Assembly: GCA_017537245.1 (NCBI GenBank) | Contig: JAFYLD010000031.1 | Span: 742-64,741, forward strand | DNA from: Clostridia bacterium | GTDB taxonomy: Bacteria > Bacillota > Clostridia > Oscillospirales > Acutalibacteraceae | Length of the DNA: 64,000 bases | Direction: 5' to 3' | Shown here: one piece after another, positions 8,943 to 40,254 of the stretch | Numbering within the stretch: the first letter of the stretch is position 1 | How the letters are laid out: the number at the start of each line of letters is the position of its first letter | Notes under the pieces: model-generated | Told to the model about the DNA's origin: nothing | Database searches by the model: none | The model's input: only the letters and a program-made list of their open reading frames with translations | Position numbers and translations under genes: made by a program

Positions 8943-8971
8943 CCCGTGTATGTTTTTACACGGGCTTTTTT
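8943..8971 (+). terminator. intrinsic terminator after rpmB
   Basis: Stem CCCGTGTA/TACACGGG, 6-nt loop, then a T-run at 8966-8971. Confidence 0.8.
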
Positions 8972-8996
8972 CTTATATAAAACAAGGAGCACAATT

Positions 8997-9656
8997 ATGA
9001 TAAAAGCAGTTTTATTTGATCTTGACGGCACTTTGGCCGATTCACTTATAGACCTAGCAGACGGTGTTAACCGCGCTATCGCATCAAAAGGCTTTCCTAC
9101 CCACGAGGTAGAAGCATTTAAATACTTTGTTGGTGACGGCATACCAAAGATGATTGAACGCGCATTGCCAGAAAGCAATCGTGATGCCGCTACCATAAAC
9201 GAAATTAAAGATATTTTTCTACCCTATTATGCTATTCACTATGCTGATAACACCTACGCGTACGCTGGTATGCCAGAACTTGTAAACACCTTAAAATCAC
9301 AGGAATTTATCGTAGCAGTAGTTACAAACAAGGAACAACACATGGCAAACGAGGTTGTAAAATCCCTTTACGGCGACGTGTTTGACCTAATTTTTGGCAA
9401 ACGCGATGGTATTCCTGCAAAGCCAGACCCAACCGCAGCATTAATGGCTATGAAGGAACTAGGAGTAACCCCCGAGGAATGTGTGTTTATCGGCGACTCG
9501 GGTATGGACGTTGCAACTGCCGTTAACAGCGGTGCCGTTCCTGTTGGCGAACTTTGGGGATTTAGAAAAGAAGATGAACTTCTTGAAAACGGAGCAAAAT
9601 ACATTATTCGCCAACCACAAGAACTTTTAGACATTATAAAGGAACTTAACAAATGA
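8997..9656 (+). CDS. HAD-superfamily hydrolase (phosphoglycolate phosphatase-like)
   Basis: MIKAVLFDLDGTLADS (DxDGT motif I), VTNK motif II, GDSGMDV motif IV. ATG at 8997 with an AGGAG SD. Confidence 0.75.
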   Translation: MIKAVLFDLDGTLADSLIDLADGVNRAIASKGFPTHEVEAFKYFVGDGIPKMIERALPESNRDAATINEIKDIFLPYYAIHYADNTYAYAGMPELVNTLKSQEFIVAVVTNKEQHMANEVVKSLYGDVFDLIFGKRDGIPAKPDPTAALMAMKELGVTPEECVFIGDSGMDVATAVNSGAVPVGELWGFRKEDELLENGAKYIIRQPQELLDIIKELNK

Positions 9657-10828
9657 GCGCATCCTATCGTTCTACAAAAATTGCCTGTTTTGTTGGTTTT
9701 GTAGTACAAGCAATTATAAACAACTTTTTACCGGTTCTTTTTATTATATTTTACAGCAAACCATATAACCTTAACTATGAACAACTAGGTCGTCTTTTAT
9801 TCATAAACTTTTTTGTTCAGCTTATAGTTGACGCTTTGACACCAGTTGTTGTTAAAAAAATTGGTTACCGTGGAGCATCGGTTGCCTGTCACGCGCTAGC
9901 GGCCACGGGACTTTGTATGCTGGGTATTTTACCTTGGCTGTTCCCTAGCTACATATACACCTGCCTTGTTGCATCAATCATTGTTTACGCGGCAGGTAGC
10001 GGCATAATCGAAGTGTGTATTAGCCCTATCGTGGAAATGTTACCGGGTGATAAAAAGGGTGCGGATATGGCTTTTTCTCACTCTTTTTATTGTTGGGGAC
10101 AAATGTTTACAGTGCTTGTATCTACACTGCTAATCGCGGTAATTGGCGAAAATTATTGGCATATAATACCTATTATTTGGGCAATTATTCCGCTGGTTAA
10201 TATGTTTAATTTTATGCGTGTGCCAATAGTAGAAGTCCCCGAAGAAAGCGCTGGTAAAACAGCTAAAAAGCTATTCAAAAATCGTGACTTTTGGATTTTT
10301 ATAGTAGTAATGGTTTGCGCGGGCGCTAGCGAAATAACCATGGCAGAGTGGGCGTCTATTTTTACCCAACAAGCTTTGGGCGTTAGCAAAACTGTGGGTG
10401 ATTTATTAGGCCCATGCGCATTTGCAGTTTGTATGGGTAGCGGCAGAGTTATATTTGGACTTTTAGACGGCAAATTTAACCCAAAGCGGGCGCTTATCAT
10501 AAACAATATACTTTGTGTTGCGTGCTACGTAGGAGTTGCGATTTGTAATATTAACTGGCTTTCTCTTGTAGTTTGCGCGCTTTGCGGATTTACAGTTAGC
10601 CTTTCTTGGCCCGGTACTTACTCTATGGCAGCGCGCCATTTTACCACAGGCGGTACGCTTATGTTTAGCGTGCTAGCGCTTAGCGGTGACCTAGGTTGCT
10701 CAATGGGACCCTGGATTATGGGAATTGTCGCAAACAACACTAACCTAGAAACCGGATTTTTAGTATCAGCTATTTTCCCTGCAGTTATGGTAGCGGTACT
10801 TCCCTTCCTTAGAAAAGAAAAATGTTGA
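9653..10828 (+). CDS. MFS transporter
   Basis: 391 aa with about 12 hydrophobic segments and a central loop (EESAGKTAKKLFKNRDF). Start overlaps the upstream stop. Confidence 0.75.
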   Translation: MSASYRSTKIACFVGFVVQAIINNFLPVLFIIFYSKPYNLNYEQLGRLLFINFFVQLIVDALTPVVVKKIGYRGASVACHALAATGLCMLGILPWLFPSYIYTCLVASIIVYAAGSGIIEVCISPIVEMLPGDKKGADMAFSHSFYCWGQMFTVLVSTLLIAVIGENYWHIIPIIWAIIPLVNMFNFMRVPIVEVPEESAGKTAKKLFKNRDFWIFIVVMVCAGASEITMAEWASIFTQQALGVSKTVGDLLGPCAFAVCMGSGRVIFGLLDGKFNPKRALIINNILCVACYVGVAICNINWLSLVVCALCGFTVSLSWPGTYSMAARHFTTGGTLMFSVLALSGDLGCSMGPWIMGIVANNTNLETGFLVSAIFPAVMVAVLPFLRKEKC

Positions 10829-10887
10829 AAAAACGCGTAATATAGTTTACAATATAAAAAAACACTATTACCTTTGAGGTGAAAAAG

Positions 10888-11364
10888 ATGAAAAGAGATG
10901 ACCACTTAAGCTGGGACGAATATTTTATGGGCATTGCGTCGCTTTCTGCACTTCGCAGTAAAGACCCTTCTACTCAAGTTGGCGCTTGCATCGTAAACGA
11001 GGAAAAACGCATACTCTCTATGGGTTATAATGGTATGCCACACCACTGTCACGATGACGAATATCCTTGGGATCGCGGTGAGGGACTTGACTCAAAGTAC
11101 CTTTACGTTTGCCATGCCGAGCTTAACGCAATACTTAACTGCAATACCTCATCGGTTCGCGGTTGCACAGTTTACGTTACACTATTTCCATGCAACGAGT
11201 GTACCAAAGCGATTATTCAATCAGGCATTAAAGAAGTTGTATATATGTGCGACAAATATGCCGACACCGACAGTGTAAAAGCGTCTAAGCGTATGCTTAA
11301 CAGCGCCGGCGTTATTTATCGTCAATATACCCCAACCAACAAAGAAATCAATATCAAACTATAA
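10888..11364 (+). CDS. comEB: deoxycytidylate (dCMP) deaminase
   Basis: CDA zinc motifs HAELNAI and PCNECTKAI. ATG at 10888 with a GAGGTG SD; the track start at 10879 is a GTG. Confidence 0.85.
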   Translation: MKRDDHLSWDEYFMGIASLSALRSKDPSTQVGACIVNEEKRILSMGYNGMPHHCHDDEYPWDRGEGLDSKYLYVCHAELNAILNCNTSSVRGCTVYVTLFPCNECTKAIIQSGIKEVVYMCDKYADTDSVKASKRMLNSAGVIYRQYTPTNKEINIKL

Positions 11365-11370
11365 AAAGAA

Positions 11371-11410
11371 ATCACCAGCCTAATAAGGTTGGTGATTTTG
11401 CGCTTTTTTG
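11371..11410 (+). terminator. intrinsic terminator after dCMP deaminase
   Basis: Stem ATCACCAGCC/GGTTGGTGAT (one G-U) followed by a T-rich tail. Confidence 0.7.
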
Positions 11411-11481
11411 CCAATAATTATATTGTCTTTTTAAAATTTTCATTATATAATGAACTTACTAAAACTAGCGAGGTAACGCGT

Positions 11482-12426
11482 ATGATAGGCTTTGATATAG
11501 GCGGTACTAAATGTGCCGTAACTATAGGTGAAGAAATCGATGGTATATTACATATAAAAAATAAAATGGTAACTGCCACCGACCACAGTATTTCGGCATA
11601 CGAAATGATTGATAAAATGTGCGACATGGCGGCAGAAATGACCGATGATTTTAGCCACATTGGTATTAGCTGCGGCGGTCCGCTTGATAACAAACGTGGC
11701 GTTATAATTTCACCGCCAAATCTACCTACCTTTAGAGATATCGAAATTGTAGATTACCTAAAGAAAAGATATGGCGGATTCGTTCGTCTCGAAAACGACG
11801 CCGATGCTTGCGCTTTTGCCGAGTGGAAATATGGCGCAGGAAAAGGTTGCCAAAATATGGTCTTTTTAACCTTTGGTACAGGGCTAGGAGCAGGTCTAGT
11901 ACTTGGCGGCAAGTTATATACCGGCGCTAACGGAAATGCCGGTGAGGTAGGTCACGTTAGACTACGCGATACAGGTCCTATCGGTTTTGGAAAAAAAGGT
12001 TCTTTTGAAGGGTTTGCAAGTGGCGGCGGTATTGCCCAAATGGGAAAAACGGCGGCGCGTGAACAACTGTCAAAAGGCATTGTCCCCTCTTACTGTAAAA
12101 GCATTGATGAATTAGATAACGTTACGGCGCGTACCATTGCCGAAGCAGCATATAGTGGCGACCAAACCGCTATTGACGTTTACCGCAAATGTGGCGAGAT
12201 GCTGGGTTTTGGACTATCTATAATCATTGACGTATTAAATCCCGAACGAATAGTTATTGGTAGTATTTACACTAGAAGTAGTGATTTACTTAAAGAAACA
12301 ATGCTAGAGGTTTTAAAACGCGAGGCTTTGGCCCCTTCACTTGCGGCGGTAGAAATTTTGCCGGCTACACTCGGTGAAAATCTTGGCGACTATGCTGCTT
12401 TATCACTCGCCGCTGATAACCACTAA
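11482..12426 (+). CDS. ROK-family sugar kinase
   Basis: MIGFDIGGTKCAV ATP-binding N-terminus, ENDADACA and GxGLGAG motifs. No N-terminal HTH, so kinase type. The ATG at 11482 is preferred. Confidence 0.8.
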   Translation: MIGFDIGGTKCAVTIGEEIDGILHIKNKMVTATDHSISAYEMIDKMCDMAAEMTDDFSHIGISCGGPLDNKRGVIISPPNLPTFRDIEIVDYLKKRYGGFVRLENDADACAFAEWKYGAGKGCQNMVFLTFGTGLGAGLVLGGKLYTGANGNAGEVGHVRLRDTGPIGFGKKGSFEGFASGGGIAQMGKTAAREQLSKGIVPSYCKSIDELDNVTARTIAEAAYSGDQTAIDVYRKCGEMLGFGLSIIIDVLNPERIVIGSIYTRSSDLLKETMLEVLKREALAPSLAAVEILPATLGENLGDYAALSLAADNH

Positions 12427-12440
12427 AAAGGAGAAAAGTT

Positions 12441-14894
12441 ATGAAACAGTTAATAGATTTAAGCGGTAAATGGGATTTATATTTGGCACCGCATAATCAA
12501 GTAAAAGAAACCGAATATGAATTTAACATTCTTAATATCAAGAAACTACCAAAGAATATAGATTTTACAAAAATTGATGCCGAAGTGCCAGGTAACTTTG
12601 AATTAGATATGCAACGCGCAGGATTACTCCATGATATTTTTATGGGTACTAATACTCTCCTTTGCCAAGAGTATGAGAACAGGCACCTTTGGTATGTAAA
12701 AGAGTTTAACCTTGACGAAATACCAACAGGCGACGTGTTTTTGCGATTTGAGGGTATTGATACCTTTGCAAAAATTTATCTTAACGGTGTATGCATAGGT
12801 AGTTGTGATAATATGCTTATTGAGCATGAATATCCCGTTCAAGAAGATTGGATGAATTACTTAAATTTAGGAAAAAACCAAATTATTGTTCATATTTACC
12901 CTACTGCTATAAAAGCACGCGAATTTGAAGGCACACCGCTTGCTGTTGGTCTTCCTTATAACGAGGATTCATTACACGTAAGAAAAGCGCCTTATATGTT
13001 TGGTTGGGACATTATGCCACGTACCGTATCAGGCGGTCTTTGGCGCGGTGTTTCACTTATCGAAAAACCCAAGCATCGAATCGACAGCTTTTATCTCGGC
13101 ACTTCTACTATGAACCTTCAGTGGAATGCCGCTACCCTTTCGGGTCAAATCCGTATTCATACCGACGATGACCTACTCTCTGATTATGAGGCGGTAATTA
13201 GTGGTACTTGCGGTGATTCTCATTTTGAGCACAGCGTTCGTTTTTGGGGCGTTAGCCGCAACTTTAGCGTAGGCTTTAAGGGCGCTAAATTCTGGTGGCC
13301 AAAGGGCGAAGGCGAGCAAAATCTTTACGACGTAGAGGTTAAACTTTATCGCAAGGGTGAACTTTGCGATACGCACAAGACTCGCATCGGTATTCGCCAA
13401 ATCGAGCTTATTCGCACTTCTACTCTAGATGAAAATGGTAAAGGCAAATTTGAATTTAAAATAAATGCTAAAAAGGTATTTATTTTGGGTACGAACTGGG
13501 TACCACTTGACGCATTCCCATCTCAAAACGAAAAGCGTGTTATCAAAGCACTCGAGATGGTCGAAGACGTTGGTTGTAATATGATTCGTCTTTGGGGTGG
13601 CGACCTTTACGAAAGTGACAGTTTCTACAACTGGTGTGACGAGCATGGTATTATGATTTGGCACGACTTTATTATGGGTTGCGCTTATTACCCACAGTAT
13701 GAAGAATTCTGCGAAAAACTTCGAGTAGAGGCAACCGTTGCCGTTAAGAGACTTCGCGACCATGCGTCTATTGTGCTTTGGGCGGGCGATAACGAGTGTG
13801 ACGTTTTCTATACATACGCACTTAAAAACGGCAAGAGACTTGACCCAAACACAAACGTACTAACCCGTAAGGTATTGCCTGAAGTTTTACGTATCTATGA
13901 CGAGTTTAGACCATATCTACCAAGTTCACCATACGTTGATGAATATGCATTCTCGGTAATCGACCAACGTCGTCCGTCAGAAGACCATCTTTGGGGACCA
14001 CGCAACTATTATAAGAGTGATTACTATACCAAGGCTACCGCGCTATTTGCCTCTGAAACAGGATTTCACGGTTGCCCATCGGTAGAGTCTTTAAAGAAAT
14101 TTATCACTCCTGAAAAATTGTGGCCGATTATATTGCCAAACGGACGTCCTAACGAGGATTATATCGTTCATGCGGCAAGTATGGAAACCAAGCATATCGG
14201 TAAGTACGAATACCGCATAGCGCTAATGTTAAAGCAGGTTGCAGTTCTCTTTGGCGGTGTTGCCGACAACAATCGTGGTACCGCTACTGCCGAAGAATCG
14301 GTAGAATACTTCGAACTTATGAAGAAAATGTTTGGCGACGGTGTTGATGCGCTCGAGGGCCACGCAAAAGCAAGCCAAATCTTCCAAGCAGAATCGTTTA
14401 AGTTTATGATTGAGCGTTTCCGTATTCGCAAAGAAACCCACGGCGGTCTAATTTGGTGGAACATTCTAGATGGTTGGCCACAAGTATCTGACGCAGTAGT
14501 TGACTACTACTTCACAAAGAAACTTGCCTACGACTATATCAAAAATTCTCAACAACCGCTTTGCCTTATGTTTGACGAGCCAAACGAAGAAAACAAAATA
14601 AGACTTGTTGCCGCAAACGATATCCCAGAGGATAAAACCTTTAGTTACAAGGTAACACGTGTTAACGATAACGCCGTTGTTGCAAGTGGTGACGCTACTG
14701 TAAGTGCTAGCGGTATTTTAGAGCTTGACGTTGTTAGTCTTGACTTTAGTGCAGAACCAATGCTACTTATCGAGTGGGAATGCGACGGCAAGGTTGGCCG
14801 TAACCACTTTATTAGTGACGTGCGCAAGCTTGACTATAACACTTATATCGATTTCTTAAACAAAACCGAAATCGGTCATTTTGAGGGATTTTAA
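12441..14894 (+). CDS. GH2 family glycoside hydrolase, beta-mannosidase-like
   Basis: 817 aa. FWWPKGEGEQNLYDV and NMIRLWGG...ESD.FY..CDE.GI..W.DF resemble GH2 beta-mannosidases. No signal peptide. Confidence 0.75.
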   Translation: MKQLIDLSGKWDLYLAPHNQVKETEYEFNILNIKKLPKNIDFTKIDAEVPGNFELDMQRAGLLHDIFMGTNTLLCQEYENRHLWYVKEFNLDEIPTGDVFLRFEGIDTFAKIYLNGVCIGSCDNMLIEHEYPVQEDWMNYLNLGKNQIIVHIYPTAIKAREFEGTPLAVGLPYNEDSLHVRKAPYMFGWDIMPRTVSGGLWRGVSLIEKPKHRIDSFYLGTSTMNLQWNAATLSGQIRIHTDDDLLSDYEAVISGTCGDSHFEHSVRFWGVSRNFSVGFKGAKFWWPKGEGEQNLYDVEVKLYRKGELCDTHKTRIGIRQIELIRTSTLDENGKGKFEFKINAKKVFILGTNWVPLDAFPSQNEKRVIKALEMVEDVGCNMIRLWGGDLYESDSFYNWCDEHGIMIWHDFIMGCAYYPQYEEFCEKLRVEATVAVKRLRDHASIVLWAGDNECDVFYTYALKNGKRLDPNTNVLTRKVLPEVLRIYDEFRPYLPSSPYVDEYAFSVIDQRRPSEDHLWGPRNYYKSDYYTKATALFASETGFHGCPSVESLKKFITPEKLWPIILPNGRPNEDYIVHAASMETKHIGKYEYRIALMLKQVAVLFGGVADNNRGTATAEESVEYFELMKKMFGDGVDALEGHAKASQIFQAESFKFMIERFRIRKETHGGLIWWNILDGWPQVSDAVVDYYFTKKLAYDYIKNSQQPLCLMFDEPNEENKIRLVAANDIPEDKTFSYKVTRVNDNAVVASGDATVSASGILELDVVSLDFSAEPMLLIEWECDGKVGRNHFISDVRKLDYNTYIDFLNKTEIGHFEGF

Positions 14895-14895
14895 T

Positions 14896-15510
14896 ATGGA
14901 AACTTTAAAACAGTTAATCGAGCGTTACCCTGCCCTCGCTTCTTGCAAAAAAGAAATTGAGCAGGCTACCGATTTAATTATTAAAACGTTTGAAAACGGT
15001 AACCGACTTTATATTTGCGGTAACGGTGGAAGTGCTGCTGATGCCGACCACATTGTTGGAGAACTTATGAAAGGTTTTTTAAAGAAAAGACCCCTAACCG
15101 AAACACAAGTGGCCGCCTTCGACGATAAAGATCTCGCCAAAGGGCTAATGCAAGGCTTACCCGCGATTTCACTTCATTCGCAAAGCGCGTTTTTAACCGC
15201 ATTTTTAAATGACGAAGATCCTTCCCTTTTATATGCGCAGGCTATGTACGCGCTAGGTAAAAAGGGCGATACCTTACTTGCAATTAGCACTTCGGGTAAT
15301 TCACAAAACGTATCAAACGCAGTAAACGCGGCTCGCGCATTGGGTTGCAACGTAATATCTCTTGTTGGTAATAAGGCTTGCAAACTTGATGATATTTCTA
15401 ATATCATCATACACGCCGACCATGCTGAAACCTACCGCATACAAGAATTACATTTGCCGATTTATCACTATATTTGCGCTACTGTCGAGCATCACTTTTT
15501 CAAAGTATAA
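14896..15510 (+). CDS. SIS-domain protein (GmhA/phosphoheptose isomerase-like)
   Basis: LYICGNGGSAADADHIVGELMKGF and ISTSGNS motifs. ATG at 14896 lies 2 nt after the GH2 stop, with a GAGGG SD. Confidence 0.75.
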   Translation: METLKQLIERYPALASCKKEIEQATDLIIKTFENGNRLYICGNGGSAADADHIVGELMKGFLKKRPLTETQVAAFDDKDLAKGLMQGLPAISLHSQSAFLTAFLNDEDPSLLYAQAMYALGKKGDTLLAISTSGNSQNVSNAVNAARALGCNVISLVGNKACKLDDISNIIIHADHAETYRIQELHLPIYHYICATVEHHFFKV

Positions 15511-15517
15511 ACTAAAA

Positions 15518-15545
15518 GCACACTTCGGTTTGAAGTGTGCTTTTT
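15518..15545. terminator. bidirectional terminator between the SIS gene and the convergent DUF4886-like gene
   Basis: Stem GCACACTTC/GAAGTGTGC flanked by an A-run (5') and a T-run (3'). Confidence 0.8.
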
Positions 15546-15550
15546 ATCAT

Positions 15551-16294
15551 TTATTTTGCATTTAAAACAGTATCAACTGCAGATTTTACAACGTCGATAA
15601 GCGCCGCATCCTCGCACAACTCAGGCGCATAGGTAACGTCAGCGGTCTTGCCGCCAAACAACTTGCAATACCACGTGAGAGCCGCAGCGTATCTGCCGTA
15701 GCCCAGCGTCAAATGAAAACCGTCGCGGTTAAGTGAAAGACCGCCGTTTTTGTAGTCAAATTCTTTTGTGTTGTCACGCAAATACTGTATTACGTCACCC
15801 GATGGAATAATATCGGCACCAATGCTTTCTGCCGCAAGATCATACGCTTCACAAAGTTTTTCATACATACATTTTTGATCTCTGTTATAAAAATCAAAGA
15901 GTTCGCTATCATAATCTATTTCATAAGCCCAGGTTTTGTGAATATAGAACTTAGCGTTTGGACAAGCCTCTTTAACAATCTTGTAAAGGTCACACAAAAA
16001 CGGTTGATATTTGTCAGCTCTACCACTTTCGTAGCTTGCTTGTTGGAACGTTATAACATCCCACTCTTCCATAGCGAGCGCTTCGCGCAAAGAAATCTTG
16101 CGAGCCGGCTCACCTTTTATTTCATAGTCGTAATCTGCTCTATCTTCTTCATAAAATTTCCAATGAGCATATAAAGAGCAACCGCCGTAATAAAGATTTA
16201 CGTTATATATATCTTTGCCCGCGCTTTTGCAAACGTCATAAAGCCACTTTTGAGCATCTTGTGAAAAACTGTTACCAATACTTAAAATTTTCAT
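15551..16294 (-). CDS. DUF4886 / SGNH-hydrolase-like protein
   Basis: 247 aa. N-terminal MKILSIGNSFSQD (GNSxS-type block I). No signal peptide. Family assignment is from memory. Confidence 0.55.
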   Translation of the reverse strand: MKILSIGNSFSQDAQKWLYDVCKSAGKDIYNVNLYYGGCSLYAHWKFYEEDRADYDYEIKGEPARKISLREALAMEEWDVITFQQASYESGRADKYQPFLCDLYKIVKEACPNAKFYIHKTWAYEIDYDSELFDFYNRDQKCMYEKLCEAYDLAAESIGADIIPSGDVIQYLRDNTKEFDYKNGGLSLNRDGFHLTLGYGRYAAALTWYCKLFGGKTADVTYAPELCEDAALIDVVKSAVDTVLNAK

Positions 16295-16328
16295 AATAAA
16301 ACCTCTTTTTGATAGATGTTATGCTAAT

Positions 16329-16357
16329 ATTTTATCTTGATAATGCCTAAAAGTCAA
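16329..16357 (-). promoter_or_regulatory. candidate promoter of the DUF4886-like gene
   Basis: On the minus strand: TTGACT (16357-16352), 17 nt, TAAAAT (16334-16329). Confidence 0.5.
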
Positions 16358-16445
16358 TATATAGTTAGCATATAATAACTGTGCTGTTATTAAGGTTACG
16401 TTTATGTACGTCGGTAGCCAGCTACCACAATATCACTAAAATTTT

Positions 16446-16478
16446 AAGTCACAAGTCGCCAAAACTTGTGACTTTTTA
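16446..16478 (+). terminator. orphan terminator-like hairpin upstream of the GH16 array
   Basis: 11-bp stem AAGTCACAAGT/ACTTGTGACTT, 7-nt loop and a T-run. No plus-strand gene lies upstream of it. Confidence 0.45.
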
Positions 16479-16488
16479 CTTTTATTCC

Positions 16489-16521
16489 TTGATTATTTAG
16501 AATATATATGATATATTCTAA
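16489..16521 (+). promoter_or_regulatory. candidate promoter of the GH16 array, overlapped by a perfect 11+3+11 palindrome
   Basis: TTGATT (16489-16494), 17 nt, TATATT (16512-16517). The palindrome TTAGAATATAT-ATG-ATATATTCTAA spans 16497-16521. Confidence 0.5.
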
Positions 16522-16563
16522 TTGGAACGCATTTCCAAATTATTTTAGGGAGGTTATATATTT

Positions 16564-17643
16564 ATGACCGATTTCGAACTAAACGTCATTGAAGAAGGTT
16601 TTTACAAAGGCGAGCCTTGTGACGACTTTAAAATTCATCTAGAAAAATATCACCCTGGCGTACCGGGTTATTCCGTTGCGTACAAGTATTACATTGTGTT
16701 TAAGGGTGAACGCATTAGTCCACGCGGCTGCAACATTAGAGCCGACTACCCAGACGTATTCTTTAAAGCGGACGAGATTATTATTCCCGACGCTACTCGT
16801 CAAATGGGCGGCTGGATGACGATTGACCTCCACTGTGCAGAGGACCCCGACTATACTGCAAAATTAAAGATTAAACTTCGTAAATACGAAATGACTCTTG
16901 AAGATAATTTCGAAACCTATAACACCGACCTTTGGACTCCTCGTCACGATGGCGCAAAGGTTGCTATGGCTTATACAAAGGTTAAGGACAACTACGTTCG
17001 TGATGGTAAGCTTTGTCTTGATTTTGAAAAACACGACGAGCCTGTTATTCGCGACGGCAAAGAGTGCTACTACTCTGACGCAGGTTTGCATACACGCGGC
17101 AAGTTCTCACAAAAATATGGTTGCTTTGCGTCAAGCATTCAAGTACCACCATGTCCTACCGGTATTTTCACAGCTTTCTGGCTACTACCTGAAGGCAGAT
17201 ATCAAGAAGATTACTTCTTTAAACGTACCGACACAGGCGACGATTTCCATGGTTGTAGCGAAATCGATATTATGGAAATATTCTGTCACCCTGCTACCCG
17301 CGGTAGCGCGCACACCGAACATTATTGGGAGCCTAACTGGGACAGAGCAGTAAGCGGAATTACCAAGAGCTCTCTTGGCTATGATTACACAATTCCGGGT
17401 TACAAAGATGGTCAATACATTGAATACGCTTGTGTTTGGAACGAATACGCGCTTTACTACTACGTAAATGGTGTTCTTGCAAAGGTAAACGACAAGATTG
17501 CTCCTGTTGACGAGGTATTTCCGGCATACATCCTTTATACCTGCTATATCGGACCAGAAGGCAGCGGCGCTTTCTGGGGCGAAGTTCCTGATAAGGATCT
17601 TCCACAAGCAATGAAGGTTGACTGGCTTAGAGTTTATAAATAA
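16564..17643 (+). CDS. GH16-like glycoside hydrolase with an unknown ~110-aa N-terminal domain, paralog 1
   Basis: 359 aa. FWLLPEG...GCSEIDIMEIF (ExDxxE), VWNEYALYYYVNG, C-terminal VDWLRVYK. GGAGG SD. No signal peptide. Confidence 0.7.
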   Translation: MTDFELNVIEEGFYKGEPCDDFKIHLEKYHPGVPGYSVAYKYYIVFKGERISPRGCNIRADYPDVFFKADEIIIPDATRQMGGWMTIDLHCAEDPDYTAKLKIKLRKYEMTLEDNFETYNTDLWTPRHDGAKVAMAYTKVKDNYVRDGKLCLDFEKHDEPVIRDGKECYYSDAGLHTRGKFSQKYGCFASSIQVPPCPTGIFTAFWLLPEGRYQEDYFFKRTDTGDDFHGCSEIDIMEIFCHPATRGSAHTEHYWEPNWDRAVSGITKSSLGYDYTIPGYKDGQYIEYACVWNEYALYYYVNGVLAKVNDKIAPVDEVFPAYILYTCYIGPEGSGAFWGEVPDKDLPQAMKVDWLRVYK

Positions 17644-17651
17644 AATCATTA

Positions 17652-17680
17652 AAGGTTGTGGTGTAACACATCACAACCTT
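17652..17680 (+). other. stable hairpin in the spacer between GH16 paralogs 1 and 2
   Basis: 13-bp stem AAGGTTGTGGTGT/ACATCACAACCTT (one G-U) with a 3-nt loop. The weak T tail makes it at best a partial terminator or processing site. Confidence 0.4.
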
Positions 17681-17702
17681 ATTTAAAAAGGAGATTTCCG
17701 TT

Positions 17703-18782
17703 ATGACCGATTTTGAACTTAACGTAATTGAAGAAGGCTTTTATAAAGGCGAGCCTTGTGACGACTTTAAAATCCATATTGAAAATTATCACCCAGGCGT
17801 ACCGGGTTATTCTGTTGCATACAAATATTACATAGTATTTAAGGGCGAACGTATAACTGCGCGCGGTTGTAATATTCGCGCTGATTATCCAGGTGTTTAC
17901 TTTAAAGCCGACGAATTTATCATCCCTGACAAAACTCGTCAAATGGGCGGTTGGATGACAATTGACCTACACTGCGCAGAGGACCCCGACTATACCGCAA
18001 AGTTAAAGATCAAGCTTCGTAAATACGAAATGACTCTTGAAGATAACTTTGAAACATTTAATACCGATCTTTGGAATGCCCTTTCCGGCGCTACAAAAAA
18101 GCCTATGGCATTTAGACTAGCTAAAGACAACTACGTTCGCGATGGTAAATTGTGCCTTGATTTTGAAAAGCACGAAACACCTACCATTCGTAACGGTGTA
18201 GAATGTTATTATTCCGACGCGGGTGTTAGCACAAAAGGTAAATTCTCTCAAGCGTACGGATGTTTTAGCACACGTATGAGCGTGCCCGAAACACCTACCG
18301 GTATTTTCTCGGCATTTTGGCTAATGCCAGAGGGTAGATATCGCGAGGATTATTTCTTTAAGCGCACCGATATGGGCGAAGAATTCCATGGTTGTAGCGA
18401 AATCGATATTATGGAAATATTCCACCACCCCTCAACACGCGGTAGCGCGCACACCGAACATTATTGGGAACCTGGTTGGGATCCAAACACACAACCGATT
18501 ACCAAGAGCTCTATCGGTATGGATTATACAATACCGGGTTATAAAGATGGCGAATTCCAAGAATATGCTTGCGTTTGGAACGAATATGCTATTTACTACT
18601 ACGTAAACGGCACTCTTGTAAGGGTAAATGACAAGATTGCTCCTGTTGAAGACGTGTTCCCTGCATATATTCTTTATACATGCTATATCGGACCTAAGGG
18701 CAGCGGCGCTTTTTGGGGCGAAGTTGACGACGAGGATCTACCACAATCTATGAAGGTCGATTGGCTTAGAGTTTATAAATAA
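17703..18782 (+). CDS. GH16-like glycoside hydrolase, paralog 2
   Basis: 359 aa. Same motifs as paralog 1 (FWLMPEG, GCSEIDIMEIF, VDWLRVYK). AGGAG SD. Confidence 0.7.
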   Translation: MTDFELNVIEEGFYKGEPCDDFKIHIENYHPGVPGYSVAYKYYIVFKGERITARGCNIRADYPGVYFKADEFIIPDKTRQMGGWMTIDLHCAEDPDYTAKLKIKLRKYEMTLEDNFETFNTDLWNALSGATKKPMAFRLAKDNYVRDGKLCLDFEKHETPTIRNGVECYYSDAGVSTKGKFSQAYGCFSTRMSVPETPTGIFSAFWLMPEGRYREDYFFKRTDMGEEFHGCSEIDIMEIFHHPSTRGSAHTEHYWEPGWDPNTQPITKSSIGMDYTIPGYKDGEFQEYACVWNEYAIYYYVNGTLVRVNDKIAPVEDVFPAYILYTCYIGPKGSGAFWGEVDDEDLPQSMKVDWLRVYK

Positions 18783-18799
18783 TTTTTAGGAGATATATA

Positions 18800-19879
18800 A
18801 TGACCGATTTTGAACTTAACGTAATTGAAGAAGGCTTTTACAAAGGTGAGCCTTGTGACGACTTTAAAATTCATCTTGTAAAATATCACCCTGGCGTACC
18901 GGGATTTACGCTAAAATACAATTACGAAATAATCTACAAAGGCGAACGCATCAGCGCGCGCGGTTGCGGTATAGAAGCCGACAACCCCGAAGTATATATC
19001 AAGGCTGACGAAATTCTTATTCCTGACCGTGTTCGCAAGTTGGGCGGATGGCTTACCATTTCCCTATTTTGCGCACAAGATCACGATTACACTGCAACAC
19101 TTAAAATCAAGATGCGTAAATATGAGCTAACCCTTGAAGATAACTTTGAAAGTTATAACACAGATTTGTGGAACGCTCGTTCAGCCGGCGCAAAGGTTGC
19201 TATGGCATTTACCGAGCCGCTTGATAACTACGTTCGCGACAATCATCTTTGCCTTGATTTTAAAAAGCACGAAACACCAACCATGCGCAATGGCAAAGAG
19301 TGCTACTACTCTGACGCCGGTGTTGATACAAAGGGTAAGTTCTCACAAAAATATGGTTGTTTCTCTACCCGAATGAAATTGCCGGATGCTCCAAAGGGTA
19401 TTTTCTCGGCATTTTGGCTCGTTCCGGAAGGCAGATACCAAGAGGACTACTTCTTTAAGCGCACCGATACCGGCGATGAATTCCATGGTTGTAGTGAAAT
19501 CGATATTATGGAAGTTTTCCACGATGCCGACACACTTGGCTCTGCTCACACCGAGCATTACTGGGAGCCTAATTGGGACCGCGCTACACAGGGCATTACC
19601 AAGAGCTCACTTGACAATTTCTACACCATCCCTGGCTTTAAATACGATAAGTATTATGAATTTGCTTGCGTTTGGAACGAATACGGCATTTACTACTACG
19701 TAGATGGCGAACTTGTAAGAGATAATCAAAACATTGCTCCTGTTGAGGAAGTGTTCCCTGCTTTTATCCTTTATACTTGCTATATCGGACCTAAGGGCAG
19801 CGGCGCTCGTTTTGGTGAAGTAGATGACGAACTACTACCAAAAACACTTCTTATCGATTGGCTAAAGGTTTATAAATAA
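18800..19879 (+). CDS. GH16-like glycoside hydrolase, paralog 3
   Basis: 359 aa. FWLVPEG, GCSEIDIMEVF, IDWLKVYK. AGGAG SD. 17-nt spacer from paralog 2. Confidence 0.7.
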   Translation: MTDFELNVIEEGFYKGEPCDDFKIHLVKYHPGVPGFTLKYNYEIIYKGERISARGCGIEADNPEVYIKADEILIPDRVRKLGGWLTISLFCAQDHDYTATLKIKMRKYELTLEDNFESYNTDLWNARSAGAKVAMAFTEPLDNYVRDNHLCLDFKKHETPTMRNGKECYYSDAGVDTKGKFSQKYGCFSTRMKLPDAPKGIFSAFWLVPEGRYQEDYFFKRTDTGDEFHGCSEIDIMEVFHDADTLGSAHTEHYWEPNWDRATQGITKSSLDNFYTIPGFKYDKYYEFACVWNEYGIYYYVDGELVRDNQNIAPVEEVFPAFILYTCYIGPKGSGARFGEVDDELLPKTLLIDWLKVYK

Positions 19880-19896
19880 TTTGGGAGATTAACACA

Positions 19897-20976
19897 ATGA
19901 CTGATTACGAACTTAACGTAAAGGTTGAATCGTTTTGTGGCGATCAACCTTGCGACGATATGCAAATTCACCTAAAAACCTATCACCCGGGTATTCCTGG
20001 TTACGCTCTAAAGTATAATTACTTTGTCACCTTTAAGGGCGAAAAACTAGCGTTTACAGATTATGACGTAGATTTTAATCTTCCTATGGTTTGGATTATT
20101 GACGAACTTATCGTAATCCCTGATGAAATTCGTCAACGCGGTGAAACACTTAAAATCACCGTTACCCATAAAGAGCACAAGGAATATTCATCTACCATAT
20201 ATATCAAGATGCGTAAATATGAATTAACTCTAGAAGATAATTTTGATACGTATAACACCGATTTGTGGGAAGGTATGCCTTACGGTGCTAAAACTCCGCT
20301 CGCTATTACTCCTGTTCAAGACAACTACGTTAAAAACGGTCAGCTTTGTCTTGAATTCAAAAAACTCGATACACCTATCGTTCGCGACGGTAAAGAGTAT
20401 TGGTACACCGATGCAGGTGTTAGAACAAAGGGCAAATTCTCACAAACATACGGCTGCTTTACCGCAAAGTGCAAGCACCCTAGCTATCGCAAGGGACTTT
20501 TCACTGCATTTTGGCTTATGCCTGAAGGCGAGTATTGTGAAGAATATTTCTTTAAGCGCACCGACACAGGCGACGATTTCCACGGTTGTAGTGAAATCGA
20601 TATTATGGAAATCTTCTGCCATCCAGACACACTAGGCTCTGCTCATACCGAGCATTTCTGGGAACCCGGTTGGGACTGGGACACTCAAGGCATTACCAAG
20701 AGTTCACTTGGCGAGCACTATATAATTCCGGGCTTTAAATATGGCGAATTCCAAGAATATTCTTGCGTTTGGAACGAGTATGCTATTTACTACTACGTAA
20801 ACGGCGAACTTGCAAAGGTAAATCCAAATATCGCTCCTGTTGACGACGTTAAGGCGGCATATATCAAGTTTACCTGCTATATTGGTCCAGAAGGCAGCGG
20901 CAAACATTGGGGCGACGTTCCCGATGAACTATTACCACAAGAGTTTGTTATCGACTGGCTAAAAGTATATAAATAA
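19897..20976 (+). CDS. GH16-like glycoside hydrolase, paralog 4 (most diverged N-terminal domain)
   Basis: 359 aa. FWLMPEG, GCSEIDIMEIF, IDWLKVYK. GGGAG SD. 17-nt spacer from paralog 3. Confidence 0.7.
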   Translation: MTDYELNVKVESFCGDQPCDDMQIHLKTYHPGIPGYALKYNYFVTFKGEKLAFTDYDVDFNLPMVWIIDELIVIPDEIRQRGETLKITVTHKEHKEYSSTIYIKMRKYELTLEDNFDTYNTDLWEGMPYGAKTPLAITPVQDNYVKNGQLCLEFKKLDTPIVRDGKEYWYTDAGVRTKGKFSQTYGCFTAKCKHPSYRKGLFTAFWLMPEGEYCEEYFFKRTDTGDDFHGCSEIDIMEIFCHPDTLGSAHTEHFWEPGWDWDTQGITKSSLGEHYIIPGFKYGEFQEYSCVWNEYAIYYYVNGELAKVNPNIAPVDDVKAAYIKFTCYIGPEGSGKHWGDVPDELLPQEFVIDWLKVYK

Positions 20977-20987
20977 CAATAAAAAAA

Positions 20988-21022
20988 GAAGAACTCAAGT
21001 CCTTTTAGGACTTGAGTTCTTT
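20988..21022. terminator. bidirectional terminator after the GH16 array
   Basis: ~15-bp stem GAAGAACTCAAGTCC/GGACTTGAGTTCTTT with A-rich 5' and T-rich 3' flanks. Confidence 0.8.
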
Positions 21023-21027
21023 TAATA

Positions 21028-21537
21028 TTATAAAACAGACATTAAAATACAACCAATTACGAATGTGCCTGCGCCAACAACCGTTGGGAAAAGAATGCCA
21101 AGCTTGAATTCCGGATTCCAATTAAGTTTTTTGCAACTAGCCTTAAATTTAATGCAGTAAGCAATGTATCTTATTGGTGTAACGAAAACGCCAACAAATA
21201 TTATACAGAAAAACTGAATAACCAATAGTCCTAACTTTCCGCCTAAATCATAATCGTAGGTTTTGCGACCGTCTTTGTATGTAGTTTCAATTACGTAATC
21301 ATAATTAAAAATGTTTTTAAATCCGTGTCTTCTTACAGAAATTACCGACGGTACAGAAATTACCAACGCACCCAAAATTGCGATAAGTGGATTTACCGGA
21401 AGGCCGATAGTAATCATCAACCATCCAATACAACAAAAAATAACAATTTTCCAAATTTCCTTAAGTCCGTGACTCATTTTGTCAAGGGCTTCCATTTCAA
21501 CCTCGTTTAATTCTTGTTCTAACATTTCTTCACTCAT
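21028..21537 (-). CDS. small membrane protein of unknown function
   Basis: Acidic N-terminus (MSEEMLEQELNEVEMEALDK) followed by about 4 TM segments. ATG at 21537 with an AGGGGAA SD is preferred over the track start. Confidence 0.5.
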   Translation of the reverse strand: MSEEMLEQELNEVEMEALDKMSHGLKEIWKIVIFCCIGWLMITIGLPVNPLIAILGALVISVPSVISVRRHGFKNIFNYDYVIETTYKDGRKTYDYDLGGKLGLLVIQFFCIIFVGVFVTPIRYIAYCIKFKASCKKLNWNPEFKLGILFPTVVGAGTFVIGCILMSVL

Positions 21538-21599
21538 AACCAATTCCCCTTTTGTTAATAATATTAGCAATAATCGGTATAACCTATCACCAACTATAT

Positions 21600-21645
21600 T
21601 TTAGCGGATTTTTCGCTAAAAGTCAATAGCGAATATTCCGCTAAA
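21600..21645. promoter_or_regulatory. operator-like repeats in the divergent XRE/membrane-protein promoter region
   Basis: Inverted repeat TTTAGCG-N7-CGCTAAA (21600-21620) plus a third half-site CCGCTAAA (21638-21645) abutting TATAAT (21647-21652). Confidence 0.45.
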
Positions 21646-21683
21646 CTATAATAAATGCATATACTATAAATGGTGGTGGTTAT

Positions 21684-21902
21684 ATGCCTTTATATGAGCG
21701 AATACGAAATCTGCGCGAAGACAAAGACTTAACTCAAACTGATATGGGCAAGGTACTTTCATGTAGCCAACGTGTATATAGCAACTACGAACGCGGAGAT
21801 ATAGATATACCCACTACAACACTTATTAAAATTGCCGATTTTCACAAAGTATCTATCGATTATCTACTTAACCGCACCGATAATCCAAATACAAATATAT
21901 AA
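21684..21902 (+). CDS. XRE-family helix-turn-helix transcriptional regulator
   Basis: 72 aa. RIRNLREDKDLTQTDMGKVLSCSQRVYSNYERG is a classic Cro/C1 HTH. Confidence 0.85.
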   Translation: MPLYERIRNLREDKDLTQTDMGKVLSCSQRVYSNYERGDIDIPTTTLIKIADFHKVSIDYLLNRTDNPNTNI

Positions 21903-38283: not shown

Positions 38284-40254
38284 TCAATACTTAATTTCAG
38301 TCATCTGCCAACATTCAAATTTTGGAATGGTAAATTCAAGTGTGCCATCTTTGTATTTGAATTTTAGCTTTTTATTTTCGGGAACAAGTTTTACCGAGCG
38401 TGGTTTTTTGTCGGTCTTTAGTGATACGGTTGTATCATAAATTGGGATGAGGTCCTCAATAATTTGAGTCTTTTCGCCACGAAGAACAGCCGATGCATAA
38501 AGTGTGTGCACAATTTGTGTATCGCCGTTTTGGGTTAAGGTTATAACACCTTGAGCCGGCAAGTTGGTCTTTATGGTCTTAGCGTCGCCTATAAGCGCCT
38601 CAATTGCCGCACGAACGATTTCTTTGGTATAGATGCTACCATGCTTGAAATATTCGTAAAATACCTTGTGAGCAAAATAAGCAGTATTTTCGGTCATAAC
38701 TACCGCGTCACCATAACGCTCACCGCTATATGGTGTATGTAGGTGCGAGCAAAAATGCTCGAGAGCGCGGTTAAAGTATGGCTTATCAATAATAGCAGTA
38801 GCCTTGCCACTAGTAGCAGATACCTTCATAGCGTCTTCATATACTAGATATGATGCAGTTGGCAAGCAGTCGATATCGTTATCGGGTTTAATATAGGTTG
38901 GCTTGTATTCGCTTTCCCCCTCAAACTTACAACCAAAGTCGAGCGCAAAATCAGTTTTGTCTTGATTTAAACCTGACTCGTAACTTGCAAGCACCTTACC
39001 GCCTGCAGCGATATAATCGTTAATCTTTTTGGCAAGCGCATCATCAAGTGTGCAAATATCAGGCAAAATGAGTAGTTTGTAGTTTGAAAAATCTGCTTTT
39101 TCGTCAATAAAGTCAAAGAGATAGTTGCTCTCTAGCAATATACGTGTGCAACCCTTGCTCCAGTGTAGTGACTCCCAGCTTGGTTTAGCAATACCGTTGT
39201 AGTTTTGCCATGCTTCACTAGAGAATACTGCGATATCGCCCTTGACGTTCTTATAACCATCAAGCCAAGGCTCACGCTCTTCTACCGTCTTATAAGCTTC
39301 GCCAATAAGAGTATATGTAGCGTTATCCATAAAGCCTGTTGGATGCAACTGGTCGCCAATAGAACTGCAAGCGCCGTTTGCCGCAGAAAGAGCTACCTCA
39401 TAACGCAATGCGTTAGGGTGCTTGTAACCGCCAAACTCGCCCCACGCCTTATGGAATTTACCGGTCATACCAAGGTAGTCCATACCAATAGTGCGAGCAT
39501 AAGCCGCAGACATTGGGAAGTGGTCGTAACCCCAACCGCCTGTTGGCAAACTCTCGAGCTCAAGATGGGTATTGGCGTGAGCTAGGTCATATCTGCCGTG
39601 ACGAATGTGACCGCCGTTGTGGAATACAGGTAGTCCCGGTTTTACAGAATCGATAGTTTCGCGAACGCGACGAACGTAGTTTGCGTAGGTTTCTTCGGCC
39701 AAAATCTTTACGTCGTCAGGATTATTTACGTCTAGACCGCGCTCTGCCATTTGTTTGCGGCAGGTTTCACAATAACAAGGGTCAACGTGAACAATGTCTA
39801 GGAAAATGCCGTCGGCATCATAGTTTTCACAAACCTCTTTAATTTCGGCCAAAAGTTCGTCAAGATAAGGTGTGTTTAGGCACATTAGGTGATAGCCAAC
39901 GTACTCCATATTTATACCGTTTTGGTATTCGTCGAGTCGATAATTTAGCCACTCGGGATGCTCGGCAATAGCCTTGTGGTCAAAGCCTGCCGAAATATAA
40001 ACAGGGGTTTTAACACCAATTTCGTGAGCCGCCTCAATTTGAGCGCCCAAAAGGTCAAACTTTAGGTTTGGGTGCATCTTATTAACCTTTGTAGGATGAT
40101 AAGACCATCCGTGATGGCACTTTGAAAATACCGTTATAGAGTCAACGTGACCTTTTTTTAGCATAGTTTGGAAATTTTCTTTTGAAAACGCGCTACCTAT
40201 GCCGTCAATTGCTTCTGATGTGTGAAAGTCAAGATGTACCTGTCTTCTTCTCAT
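38284..40254 (-). CDS. putative glycoside hydrolase (GHL6-like TIM barrel plus beta-galactosidase-trimerisation-like domain)
   Basis: 656 aa. N-terminus RQVHLDFHTSE...ITVFSKCHHGW resembles the GHL6 family. No signal peptide. Assignment is from memory. Confidence 0.5.
   Translation of the reverse strand: MRRRQVHLDFHTSEAIDGIGSAFSKENFQTMLKKGHVDSITVFSKCHHGWSYHPTKVNKMHPNLKFDLLGAQIEAAHEIGVKTPVYISAGFDHKAIAEHPEWLNYRLDEYQNGINMEYVGYHLMCLNTPYLDELLAEIKEVCENYDADGIFLDIVHVDPCYCETCRKQMAERGLDVNNPDDVKILAEETYANYVRRVRETIDSVKPGLPVFHNGGHIRHGRYDLAHANTHLELESLPTGGWGYDHFPMSAAYARTIGMDYLGMTGKFHKAWGEFGGYKHPNALRYEVALSAANGACSSIGDQLHPTGFMDNATYTLIGEAYKTVEEREPWLDGYKNVKGDIAVFSSEAWQNYNGIAKPSWESLHWSKGCTRILLESNYLFDFIDEKADFSNYKLLILPDICTLDDALAKKINDYIAAGGKVLASYESGLNQDKTDFALDFGCKFEGESEYKPTYIKPDNDIDCLPTASYLVYEDAMKVSATSGKATAIIDKPYFNRALEHFCSHLHTPYSGERYGDAVVMTENTAYFAHKVFYEYFKHGSIYTKEIVRAAIEALIGDAKTIKTNLPAQGVITLTQNGDTQIVHTLYASAVLRGEKTQIIEDLIPIYDTTVSLKTDKKPRSVKLVPENKKLKFKYKDGTLEFTIPKFECWQMTEIKY

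Follow-up and report, generated by a model that had tools for sequence, protein, structure and literature searches.

Four tandem genes at positions 16564-20976 of a 64,000-nucleotide stretch of DNA from a Clostridia bacterium of the Acutalibacteraceae (contig JAFYLD010000031.1; we refer to the whole stretch as the window) most probably encode active enzymes of glycoside hydrolase family 16 (GH16). We are also fairly confident in the prediction that the four proteins are located in the cytoplasm. Endo-acting GH16s are usually seen as acting outside the cell, where they take the first step in the use of beta-glycans. In the scheme described for Firmicutes a surface endo-GH16 is followed by ATP-binding cassette (ABC) import and then by cytoplasmic exo-enzymes and phosphorylases (PMC10318527). 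We propose that the four proteins would be retaining GH16 endo-beta-glycanases that stay in the cytoplasm, where they would shorten imported oligosaccharides. The shortened pieces would pass to nearby signal-free exo-glycosidases (GH4, GH2 and GH51 in related genomes), and the four orthogroups to which the copies belong would accept different oligosaccharide structures. The activity on imported oligosaccharides in the cytoplasm and the divergent specificity are what we infer, and for the full statement, that these are cytoplasmic GH16s with imported substrates and divergent specificities, we would put the chances at about even.

If true, some gut Clostridia import fairly large oligosaccharides and cleave them internally once inside the cell. 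This would have a bearing on cross-feeding and on the prediction of the location of carbohydrate-active enzymes (CAZymes) in herbivore-gut metagenomes. No principle is overturned by this result, it is a lead at the level of an enzyme family. The GH16 family, its fold and chemistry and the logic of intracellular oligosaccharide processing are already known, and the four proteins have been deposited and automatically annotated. Three things are new: an uncharacterised GH16 lineage, in which a finger insertion is diagnostic and the Trp motif degenerate; a family of accessory domains that had not been described; and the expansion of a signal-free branch into four long-lived paralogs in uncultured herbivore-gut Clostridia. 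For specificity studies and for glycan-analysis tools, the clade supplies an accessory domain still to be characterised and a natural set of four diverged active-site variants.

An earlier note on this DNA had drawn attention to four co-oriented genes of equal length, each with its own Shine-Dalgarno (SD) sequence, and the listing of open reading frames (ORFs) of the window bears this out in full. Four ORFs of exactly 359 codons apiece lie in tandem on the plus strand, with spacers of 59, 17 and 17 nucleotides between them and a GGAG-type SD 7-10 nucleotides 5' of every ATG. Copy 1 (16564-17643, orthogroup c1) is identical to MBR6502726.1; its N-terminal domain (N-domain) covers residues 1-108 (nucleotides 16564-16887) and its GH16 domain residues 109-359, with the catalytic motif EIDIME at nucleotides 17260-17277. 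The same motif is found at 18399-18416 in copy 2 (17703-18782, orthogroup c2, MBR6502727.1), at 19496-19513 in copy 3 (18800-19879, orthogroup c3, MBR6502728.1) and at 20593-20610 in copy 4 (19897-20976, orthogroup c4, MBR6502729.1).

Membership of GH16 and the position of the catalytic glutamates, both claimed in the earlier note, are supported by profile, alignment and structure. The Pfam model PF00722 (GH16) scores 33.4, 43.7, 44.6 and 36.1 bits for copies 1 to 4, against a gathering score of 22, and NCBIfam returns weak, sub-threshold similarity to beta-glucanase and carrageenase equivalogs. The GH16 motifs read as first reported: FWL(L/M/V)PEG, GCSEIDIME(I/V)F, VWNEY.(I/L)YYYV(N/D)G and (V/I)DWL(R/K)VYK. 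In a phmmer search of the PDB, GCSEIDIME of copy 2 pairs with aCGEIDILE of ZgLamA (4bq1). A profile of 27 family members finds the Thermotoga maritima laminarinase 3azx as its top match (E 5e-19), with CsEIDIlE on CGEIDIME, so that the catalytic strand aligns residue for residue, the preceding Cys included. An AlphaFold2 model of copy 1, made from the family alignment, reaches a predicted local distance difference test (pLDDT) score of 93.8 and a predicted template modelling (pTM) score of 0.91. When this model is searched with Foldseek the GH16_3 laminarinases rank first (E 1e-15, target-normalised template modelling score 0.73, about 21% identity), with O-glycanases, mixed-linkage glucanases, carrageenases and porphyranases behind them; there are 182 PDB matches at E<=1e-3, and all 50 among the matches listed are GH16 (beta-jelly-roll, clan GH-B). 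All 27 aligned family members have E233, D235, E238, W206 and W255, and 26 of them have H253 (in TEHYW). The ExDxxE residues being invariant and aligned with those of the laminarinases, we assign the four proteins to the beta-bulge (ExDxxE) GH16 enzymes, as defined in PMC6827312, on predicted grounds. Membership of GH16 also predicts that they are retaining glycosidases.

Where in the family do they belong? The top matches in both sequence and structure are the laminarinases 3azx, 4dfs, 8xph, 2vy0, 4crq and 4bq1, together with 6t2r and 5nbo, which makes members of subfamily GH16_3 the nearest characterised relatives. The laminarinases in this set are presumably all GH16_3. For 6t2r and for BoGH16 (5nbo) the subfamily is stated (PMC7419316, PMC10318527), and GH16_3 has been called 'the laminarinase subfamily' (PMC6827312). 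A marker of GH16_3 is a conserved His on the strand beside the catalytic strand (PMC6827312), and H253 provides it. A further marker is a motif of three tryptophans in finger 3, of which the second and third make the platforms for sugars -1 and -2 (PMC7419316). Here the aligned residues are F202, W206 and F228, so the central Trp alone is retained and the other two are aromatic Phe. There is also an invariant insertion of about nine residues, relative to the laminarinases, just before the catalytic strand (the FFKRTDTGDDFHG region; …YFFKRTDTGDDFHG…). Because F202-W206-F228 matches the Trp motif only in part, we call GH16_3 the nearest neighbour of the four proteins and not their assigned subfamily. 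The label 'laminarinase-type' in the earlier note stands in that sense, and fails for the Trp motif. No solved member gives a pairwise E-value better than 2e-6, compared with a threshold of E<1e-55 for subfamilies in the sequence similarity network (SSN) of PMC6827312, and the four proteins may belong to an unclassified GH16 lineage.

The likely linkage can be addressed from the same residues. The aromatic -1 and -2 platforms (W206 and F228) suggest a beta-1,3 link between the sugars bound there (cf. PMC7419316). A prediction of Glc versus Gal specificity from sequence was abandoned, since GH16 is without a conserved discriminator between the two (PMC7419316).

The evidence on location comes from a heuristic of our own, which takes the maximum hydropathy over 12 residues in the first 60 amino acids (threshold 2.2), adds 19-residue windows, and includes a check for a lipobox. 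The four copies, which begin MTD(F/Y)ELNV…, reach 0.2-0.6 in the first measure, versus 2.3-3.9 in signal-bearing relatives, and the 19-residue maximum anywhere in the four proteins is 1.0-1.24. Neither a signal peptide nor a lipobox, a transmembrane segment or an alternative start was found in any of the four copies with this heuristic and the ORF listing. How unusual is this? As a baseline we ran the same hydropathy test on 51 ordinary GH16 homologues from other phyla. The threshold of 2.2 is passed by 38 of them, and 11 of the other 13 are plainly signal peptide or lipoprotein sequences at 1.8-2.2, which leaves 49 of the 51 with an export signal and two signal-free. A second line of evidence is the Cys content. 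Firmicutes exclude Cys from exported proteins, and in the two-domain module the median is 2.2% Cys among signal-free clade members against 1.4% among signal-bearing ones (Mann-Whitney p 1.4e-4, kinship ignored); the four window proteins contain 2.5-3.1%. The raised Cys content fits this known exclusion and gives independent support for a cytoplasmic location, which the earlier note had already favoured. Signal-free bacterial GH16s are rare, as the two in 51 of the baseline illustrate, but not unprecedented (PMC13188888).

The first 108 residues had been described as a novel N-terminal domain, and this held in one respect only. Residues 1-108 have no Pfam or NCBIfam family match at E<=1 and no sequence match in the PDB. 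However, the fold is a common one. When modelled alone the domain is an all-beta sandwich (pLDDT 92.8), and the Foldseek search that the earlier note had proposed returns generic immunoglobulin-like (Ig-like) domains only, with E-values of at least 0.08. The domain is therefore modelled as an ordinary Ig-like beta-sandwich, and the lack of a Pfam, NCBIfam or PDB sequence match, with generic Ig folds only, does not place it among the carbohydrate-binding modules (CBMs). The consensus string first given for it also needs some correction: the last part is IK(L/M)RKYE, not K(I/M)RKYE, and copy 3 has PGF, YKGE and RK.G.

A profile of the N-domain, searched against 1.84 billion representative proteins, retrieves 94 proteins at E<=1e-3 (representatives at 50% identity). 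Nearly all of the retrieved sequences that parsed carry [YW]HPGxPG[YF] and then, about 200 residues on, a GH16 catalytic strand. Most members of this N-domain+GH16 clade have a lipoprotein signal peptide and a long linker rich in Ser, Thr and Asn, a few are multidomain proteins of 700-1900 residues, some with dockerin-like segments, and about 20 lack a signal. Since most clade members are exported, the N-domain is not a hallmark of cytoplasmic proteins. It is, to judge by the proteins retrieved, a rare and undescribed accessory module specific to one Clostridia clade of GH16. To judge by the high pTM of the full-length model, the two domains are held in a fixed arrangement, in which the N-domain would be packed on the GH16 jelly-roll. 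Omega is very low between copies 1 and 2 and conservation in copy 4 is type-specific (both described below), so that the domain is in all probability functionally important, and we infer that it either stabilises the catalytic domain or binds glycan substrate.

Two related loci (L078:8664-11080 and L079:4830-7246) are informative about the location of these enzymes. Each has a single operon with genes for a lipoprotein binding protein, for an exported, lipoprotein form of the N-domain+GH16 module (415 aa) and, directly after it, for a signal-free 359-aa form; the operon also holds a signal-free GH2 and ABC importer genes. By their predicted signals these are paralogous outside and inside enzymes, paired in one operon, and on the strength of the pair in L078 we read the 359-aa proteins as a cytoplasmic endo-acting step.

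Could the four proteins act on polysaccharides outside the cell all the same, having left it by cell or mother-cell lysis at sporulation, in vesicles or by an unrecognised export route? We consider this unlikely, although there are arguments for it. The exported majority of the clade means that the module works outside, the organism sporulates (SpoIVB is encoded next door), so mother-cell lysis occurs, and there is no importer in the array operon. Against these, the signal-free state is held in all orthogroups and species sampled, and the Cys content is above that of exported relatives. Furthermore, the exported and signal-free copies of L078 in a single operon argue for two compartments, and the array promoter is of the housekeeping type, not sigma-E/K-like.

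A role in the cytoplasm need not be catabolic. The enzymes might act on the cell's own glycans, by remodelling or transglycosylating the precursors of envelope, capsule or spore polysaccharides, an explanation that we also hold to be improbable. Transglycosylases do exist in GH16 (PMC6827312), and the promoter of the array looks constitutive. There are also single-copy loci without catabolic neighbours, beside a penicillin-binding protein gene and spoIVB, and the position beside spoIVB is invariant: the slot consistently runs from a minus-strand DUF4886 gene through the GH16 array to a convergent spoIVB. That said, with spoIVB convergent and a terminator in between, the gene is a mere positional neighbour, and a functional tie of the array to spoIVB or sporulation was rejected for these two reasons and for the sigma-A-like promoter. 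A scan of the window finds no glycosyltransferase or polysaccharide-export gene nearby, and the recurrent partners of the arrays are catabolic glycosidases, esterases and importers.

These partners give some indication of the substrates. In 16 loci the array is immediately preceded, in the same orientation, by genes for an AraC regulator and for a GH4 alpha-galactosidase (NCBIfam 627 bits, cut-off 486). Downstream of the array, four loci have a GH51 alpha-L-arabinofuranosidase (ArfA, above cut-off), a GH2 whose best NCBIfam match is a sub-threshold beta-glucuronidase, and a second AraC. The set of partners in the lineage of the window (alpha-galactosidase, alpha-L-arabinofuranosidase, a beta-mannosidase-like enzyme and an esterase) would suggest fragments of arabinogalactan or galactoglucomannan. 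The clusters of distant signal-free members contain four ABC permeases, a 926-residue binding protein, a Yip1-domain protein and DUF5696, along with GH2, GH3, GH95, GH123, GH20, GH65 and GDSL/DUF4886 esterases, the glycosidases being without signal peptides. For example, in L080 and L081 signal-free members lie amid ABC permeases, a 926-aa binding protein and GH3, GH95 and GH123 enzymes that lack signal peptides. The GH20, GH95 and GH123 genes beside these distant relatives would suggest host-type glycans.

The four proteins of the window align without gaps and share 58-81% of their amino acids. Pairwise synonymous divergence (dS) is 1.2-2.4 or saturated and not calculable, with ratios of nonsynonymous to synonymous divergence (dN/dS) of 0.11-0.23. 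The copies are old duplicates under purifying selection, as the earlier note had concluded from the synonymous changes at the start of copies 1 and 2. Over the first 110 codons of these two copies dN is 0.041, dS 1.2 and omega 0.034. Gene conversion was considered as the source of their 93% identical N-domains and rejected, as dS there (1.2) is the same as in the rest of the gene. With dS equal in the N- and C-terminal parts, the near-identity is attributed to constraint.

A neighbour-joining tree resolves four orthogroups, with c1 and c2 as sisters, c3 next and c4 deepest. Identity is 86-96% within orthogroups and 58-81% between them. We find 75 type-specific positions, which are conserved within and differ between orthogroups, and 17 of these have at least three states. 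They cluster in the N-domain (mostly that of copy 4, which has the most divergent one), at residues 125-134 after YNTDLW and at residues 189-208 before and at FWL, the same patches that the earlier note had named. These variable patches appear to be the N-domain and loops flanking the cleft, and from the differences there the copies probably differ in the oligosaccharides they accept. Residues 210-240 are invariant across the orthogroups.

That invariance bears on whether the proteins are enzymes at all. Non-catalytic, lectin-like pseudo-enzymes that bind carbohydrate are a very improbable alternative; the 30 residues around E233, D235 and E238, and these three themselves, do not vary among the four copies, all orthologues and the 27 aligned members, and dN/dS is low throughout the catalytic domain. 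A precedent in favour of such a loss exists in three distant signal-free relatives, in which the catalytic motif is degraded (EISVFS in P0063, EFNIMH in P0071, ELGFLE in P0109) and the N-domain and architecture are kept. These three are possibly non-catalytic derivatives. Finally, the idea that a wrongly chosen start codon or an assembly error accounts for the lack of a signal peptide is refuted, since each ATG is the first start codon past an in-frame stop, so that no upstream extension could add a signal peptide (a concern already raised in the earlier note), the SD is at the proper distance, and dozens of independent assemblies share the MTDFELNV N-terminus.

The array is not singular. The survey of copy number that the earlier note had suggested finds arrays with 4, 3, 2 or 1 copies, in various orders and drawn from the four orthogroups, at the syntenic position in many metagenome-assembled genomes (MAGs) of Acutalibacteraceae. 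The proteins also already have a name: NCBI lists MBR6502726-29, from an 85-kb MAG contig, as 'family 16 glycosylhydrolase [Clostridia bacterium]', and the 90% clusters of these proteins have 72-198 members. A database of 5.8 billion protein clusters has only 35 related clusters. Among genomes sampled at one per GTDB species, full-length relatives of at least 60% identity are found only in Acutalibacteraceae, Oscillospiraceae and 'Ruminococcus' MAGs, from the guts of buffalo, goat, sheep and human hosts. A few Clostridia have relatives at 28-30% identity that include the N-domain, and all other matches are to the catalytic domain alone. The locus L001 (L001:8849-11086) has two c4-type copies of 361 aa each, a lineage-specific duplication, and no c3 copy. 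The history of the array therefore looks like birth-and-death evolution of old paralogs, ongoing as L001 illustrates.

Several points weigh against the proposal that cytoplasmic GH16s with divergent specificities shorten imported oligosaccharides. Localisation was predicted with our own hydropathy and lipobox heuristic, and non-classical release is possible. The Cys comparison ignores phylogeny. The array operon contains no transporter, and no sugar ABC system or exported partner was found elsewhere in the 64-kb window. L082-L085 each have just one copy and no CAZyme gene beside it, which makes any tie to a particular utilisation pathway a loose one. The substrate inference is weak, with the Trp triad partly kept (F-W-F), about 20% identity to any characterised enzyme, and the absence of a Glc/Gal discriminator throughout GH16 (PMC7419316). 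The placement of the variable patches and the N-domain at the cleft is predicted from their position in the sequence.

A comparison with known systems shows what is shared and what is not. The GH16_3 laminarinases (TmLam 3AZX, the Thermotoga petrophila enzyme 4DFS and Zobellia ZgLamA 4BQ1) have the same jelly-roll, ExDxxE strand, H253 and W206. In contrast, the four proteins are only about 20% identical to them, have Phe at the first and third Trp positions (F202 and F228) and a nine-residue insertion, carry an N-terminal Ig-like domain, lack a signal peptide and come as four tandem paralogs. The GH16_3 endo-O-glycanases of gut Bacteroides and Akkermansia (BACCAC_03717 6T2R, BF4060; PMC7419316) are also close, with 6t2r at E 1.8e-13 and Foldseek rank 12. 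One of these enzymes, BT2824, likewise has a domain of unknown function at its N-terminus, and distant members of the N-domain clade co-occur with a set that resembles host-glycan degradation (GH20, GH95, GH123 and GH2). However, the endo-O-glycanases have type I or II signal peptides and are located at the surface or in the periplasm. The domain at their N-terminus is DUF4971, to which the N-domain here gives no match, and the partners in the lineage of the window are plant-type (alpha-galactosidase, arabinofuranosidase and a beta-mannosidase-like enzyme).

BpGH16MLG of Blautia producta (PMC10318527) comes from a gut Firmicute and follows the same logic of endo-cleavage, import and cytoplasmic digestion. 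In that system the GH16 is cell-anchored and multimodular, with four CBM4s, and GH94 and GH3 enzymes work in the cytoplasm, whereas here the GH16 itself is proposed to be cytoplasmic. The exported lipoprotein members of the clade (L078:8664-9911 and P0036-P0042) share the two-domain module, [YW]HPGxPG[YF], the extended finger and ExDxxE. They differ in a lipobox signal peptide, a linker of 60-100 residues rich in Ser, Thr and Asn, fewer Cys and a copy number that is usually one. Lastly, the GH16_3 of Muricauda lutaonensis (PMC13188888) is a bacterial GH16 that has been proposed to act on oligosaccharides in the cytoplasm; unlike the array, it is a prediction only, from a Bacteroidota polysaccharide utilisation locus for laminarin, without an N-domain or tandem copies.

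We can also speculate beyond these comparisons, although we think it doubtful that every part would hold. The N-domain+GH16 clade might be a new GH16 subfamily, marked by an extended finger and a new CBM- or X-type domain family, and its signal-free branch the first dedicated cytoplasmic endo-GH16s. Each orthogroup might then be tuned to a different branched oligosaccharide of plant or host origin (e.g. derived from arabinogalactan, glucomannan or N-acetyllactosamine), activities that are not yet listed for GH16.

Turning to expression, the four copies are predicted to form one operon, which opens with a conserved sigma-A-type promoter and is closed by a strong terminator. The promoter, on the plus strand at 16489-16517, has an extended -10 (TTGATT, 17 nucleotides, TG-n-TATATT; a 9/12 consensus match with the TG), and it is kept in most of 19 related loci as CTTGATTATTT ... 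TATG(C/A)TATATT. Between the -10 box and the SD of copy 1 lies a 17-bp inverted repeat, TTGGAA-N5-TTCCAA (16522-16538, plus strand), which is conserved among related loci and species with symmetric variants. The TGGAA-N5-TTCCA repeat was rejected as a hairpin in the 5' end of the mRNA on folding energy (z 0.04). Since it is not stable as an RNA fold, a DNA operator is likelier, and the repeat may be a candidate for one. A palindrome across the promoter, AGAATATATATGATATATTCT, was also considered as an operator; no loci but the three closest keep it, and it is probably an AT-rich promoter spacer. A scan of 15400-21700 with Rfam at E<=1 for a riboswitch or RNA leader gave sub-threshold noise only.

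Three hairpins accompany the array. A terminator-like hairpin upstream of it (16446-16474, plus strand; an 11-bp stem and a T run, folding free energy (dG) -13.4 kcal/mol, z -5.9) has a stem that is maintained by compensatory changes in most loci that retain the upstream region. In the 59-nucleotide spacer between copies 1 and 2 there is a stable hairpin (17652-17680, plus strand; 13-bp stem, dG -19.6 kcal/mol, z -4.6) with a weak U tail, possibly a partial terminator or attenuator for copies 2-4 or a stabiliser of the copy-1 mRNA. The array ends in a bidirectional intrinsic terminator (20988-21022; 15- to 17-bp stem, dG -24.6 kcal/mol, z -7.3), with an A run before it and a U-rich tail after it, that is common to the array and a convergent gene for a 180-aa membrane protein. 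This hydrophobic ORF (21028-21570, minus strand) has no Pfam family and adjoins the array in L006, L007 and L010 too.

The region upstream of the array has a history of its own. Compared with L001:4295-6600, the AraC and GH4 genes are missing from window positions 16295-16563 and only the GH4 terminator hairpin is left, which looks like a lineage-specific deletion. In L001 and other loci a GH4 gene ends just 5' of the equivalent of the hairpin at 16446-16474, so the hairpin in the window would be the leftover terminator of a lost gene. The divergent neighbour is a DUF4886 gene without a signal peptide (15551-16294, minus strand; PF16227, 223.7 bits). It belongs to an SGNH-type hydrolase family (PMC9487903 places DUF4886 among the SGNH hydrolases), and it is a divergent neighbour in most related loci and also lies near the 28%-identical relative in L022.

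Further upstream, a sugar operon on the plus strand (8946-15510) encodes a HAD phosphatase, an MFS transporter, a cytidine-type deaminase, a ROK kinase, a GH2 and a SIS isomerase, and is followed by a terminator at 15514-15544. This operon is also adjacent to the array in L013, and its HAD-MFS-deaminase part lies directly 3' of a single GH16 gene in L019; it is a possible functional partner of the array. The GH2 (12441-14894, plus strand) is beta-mannosidase-like and has no signal peptide. It matches 9nfe at E 3e-137 and also the beta-mannosidases 5n6u and 2vjx; the closest PDB entries, 9nfe and 9np8-9npn, which are labelled only 'Glycoside hydrolase family 2', come ahead of the known beta-mannosidases, and this series of structures, recent or as yet unpublished, may define the real specificity of the enzyme.

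Two further observations concern genes that may be of interest in their own right. A cluster recurs in L078-L081 (and L022) with two permease pairs, a 926-aa solute-binding protein, a 714-aa Yip1-domain protein, DUF5696 and signal-free GH2, GH3, GH95 and GH123 enzymes, and it is apparently undescribed; in the literature we found nothing on DUF5696 and almost nothing on DUF4886 or cytoplasmic GH16. Within the window, a 656-aa protein (38284-40254, minus strand) combines GHL6 (hypothetical glycosyl hydrolase 6) and GH42 trimerisation domains, is encoded beside an acyltransferase-3 gene, and is a putative further uncharacterised glycosidase.

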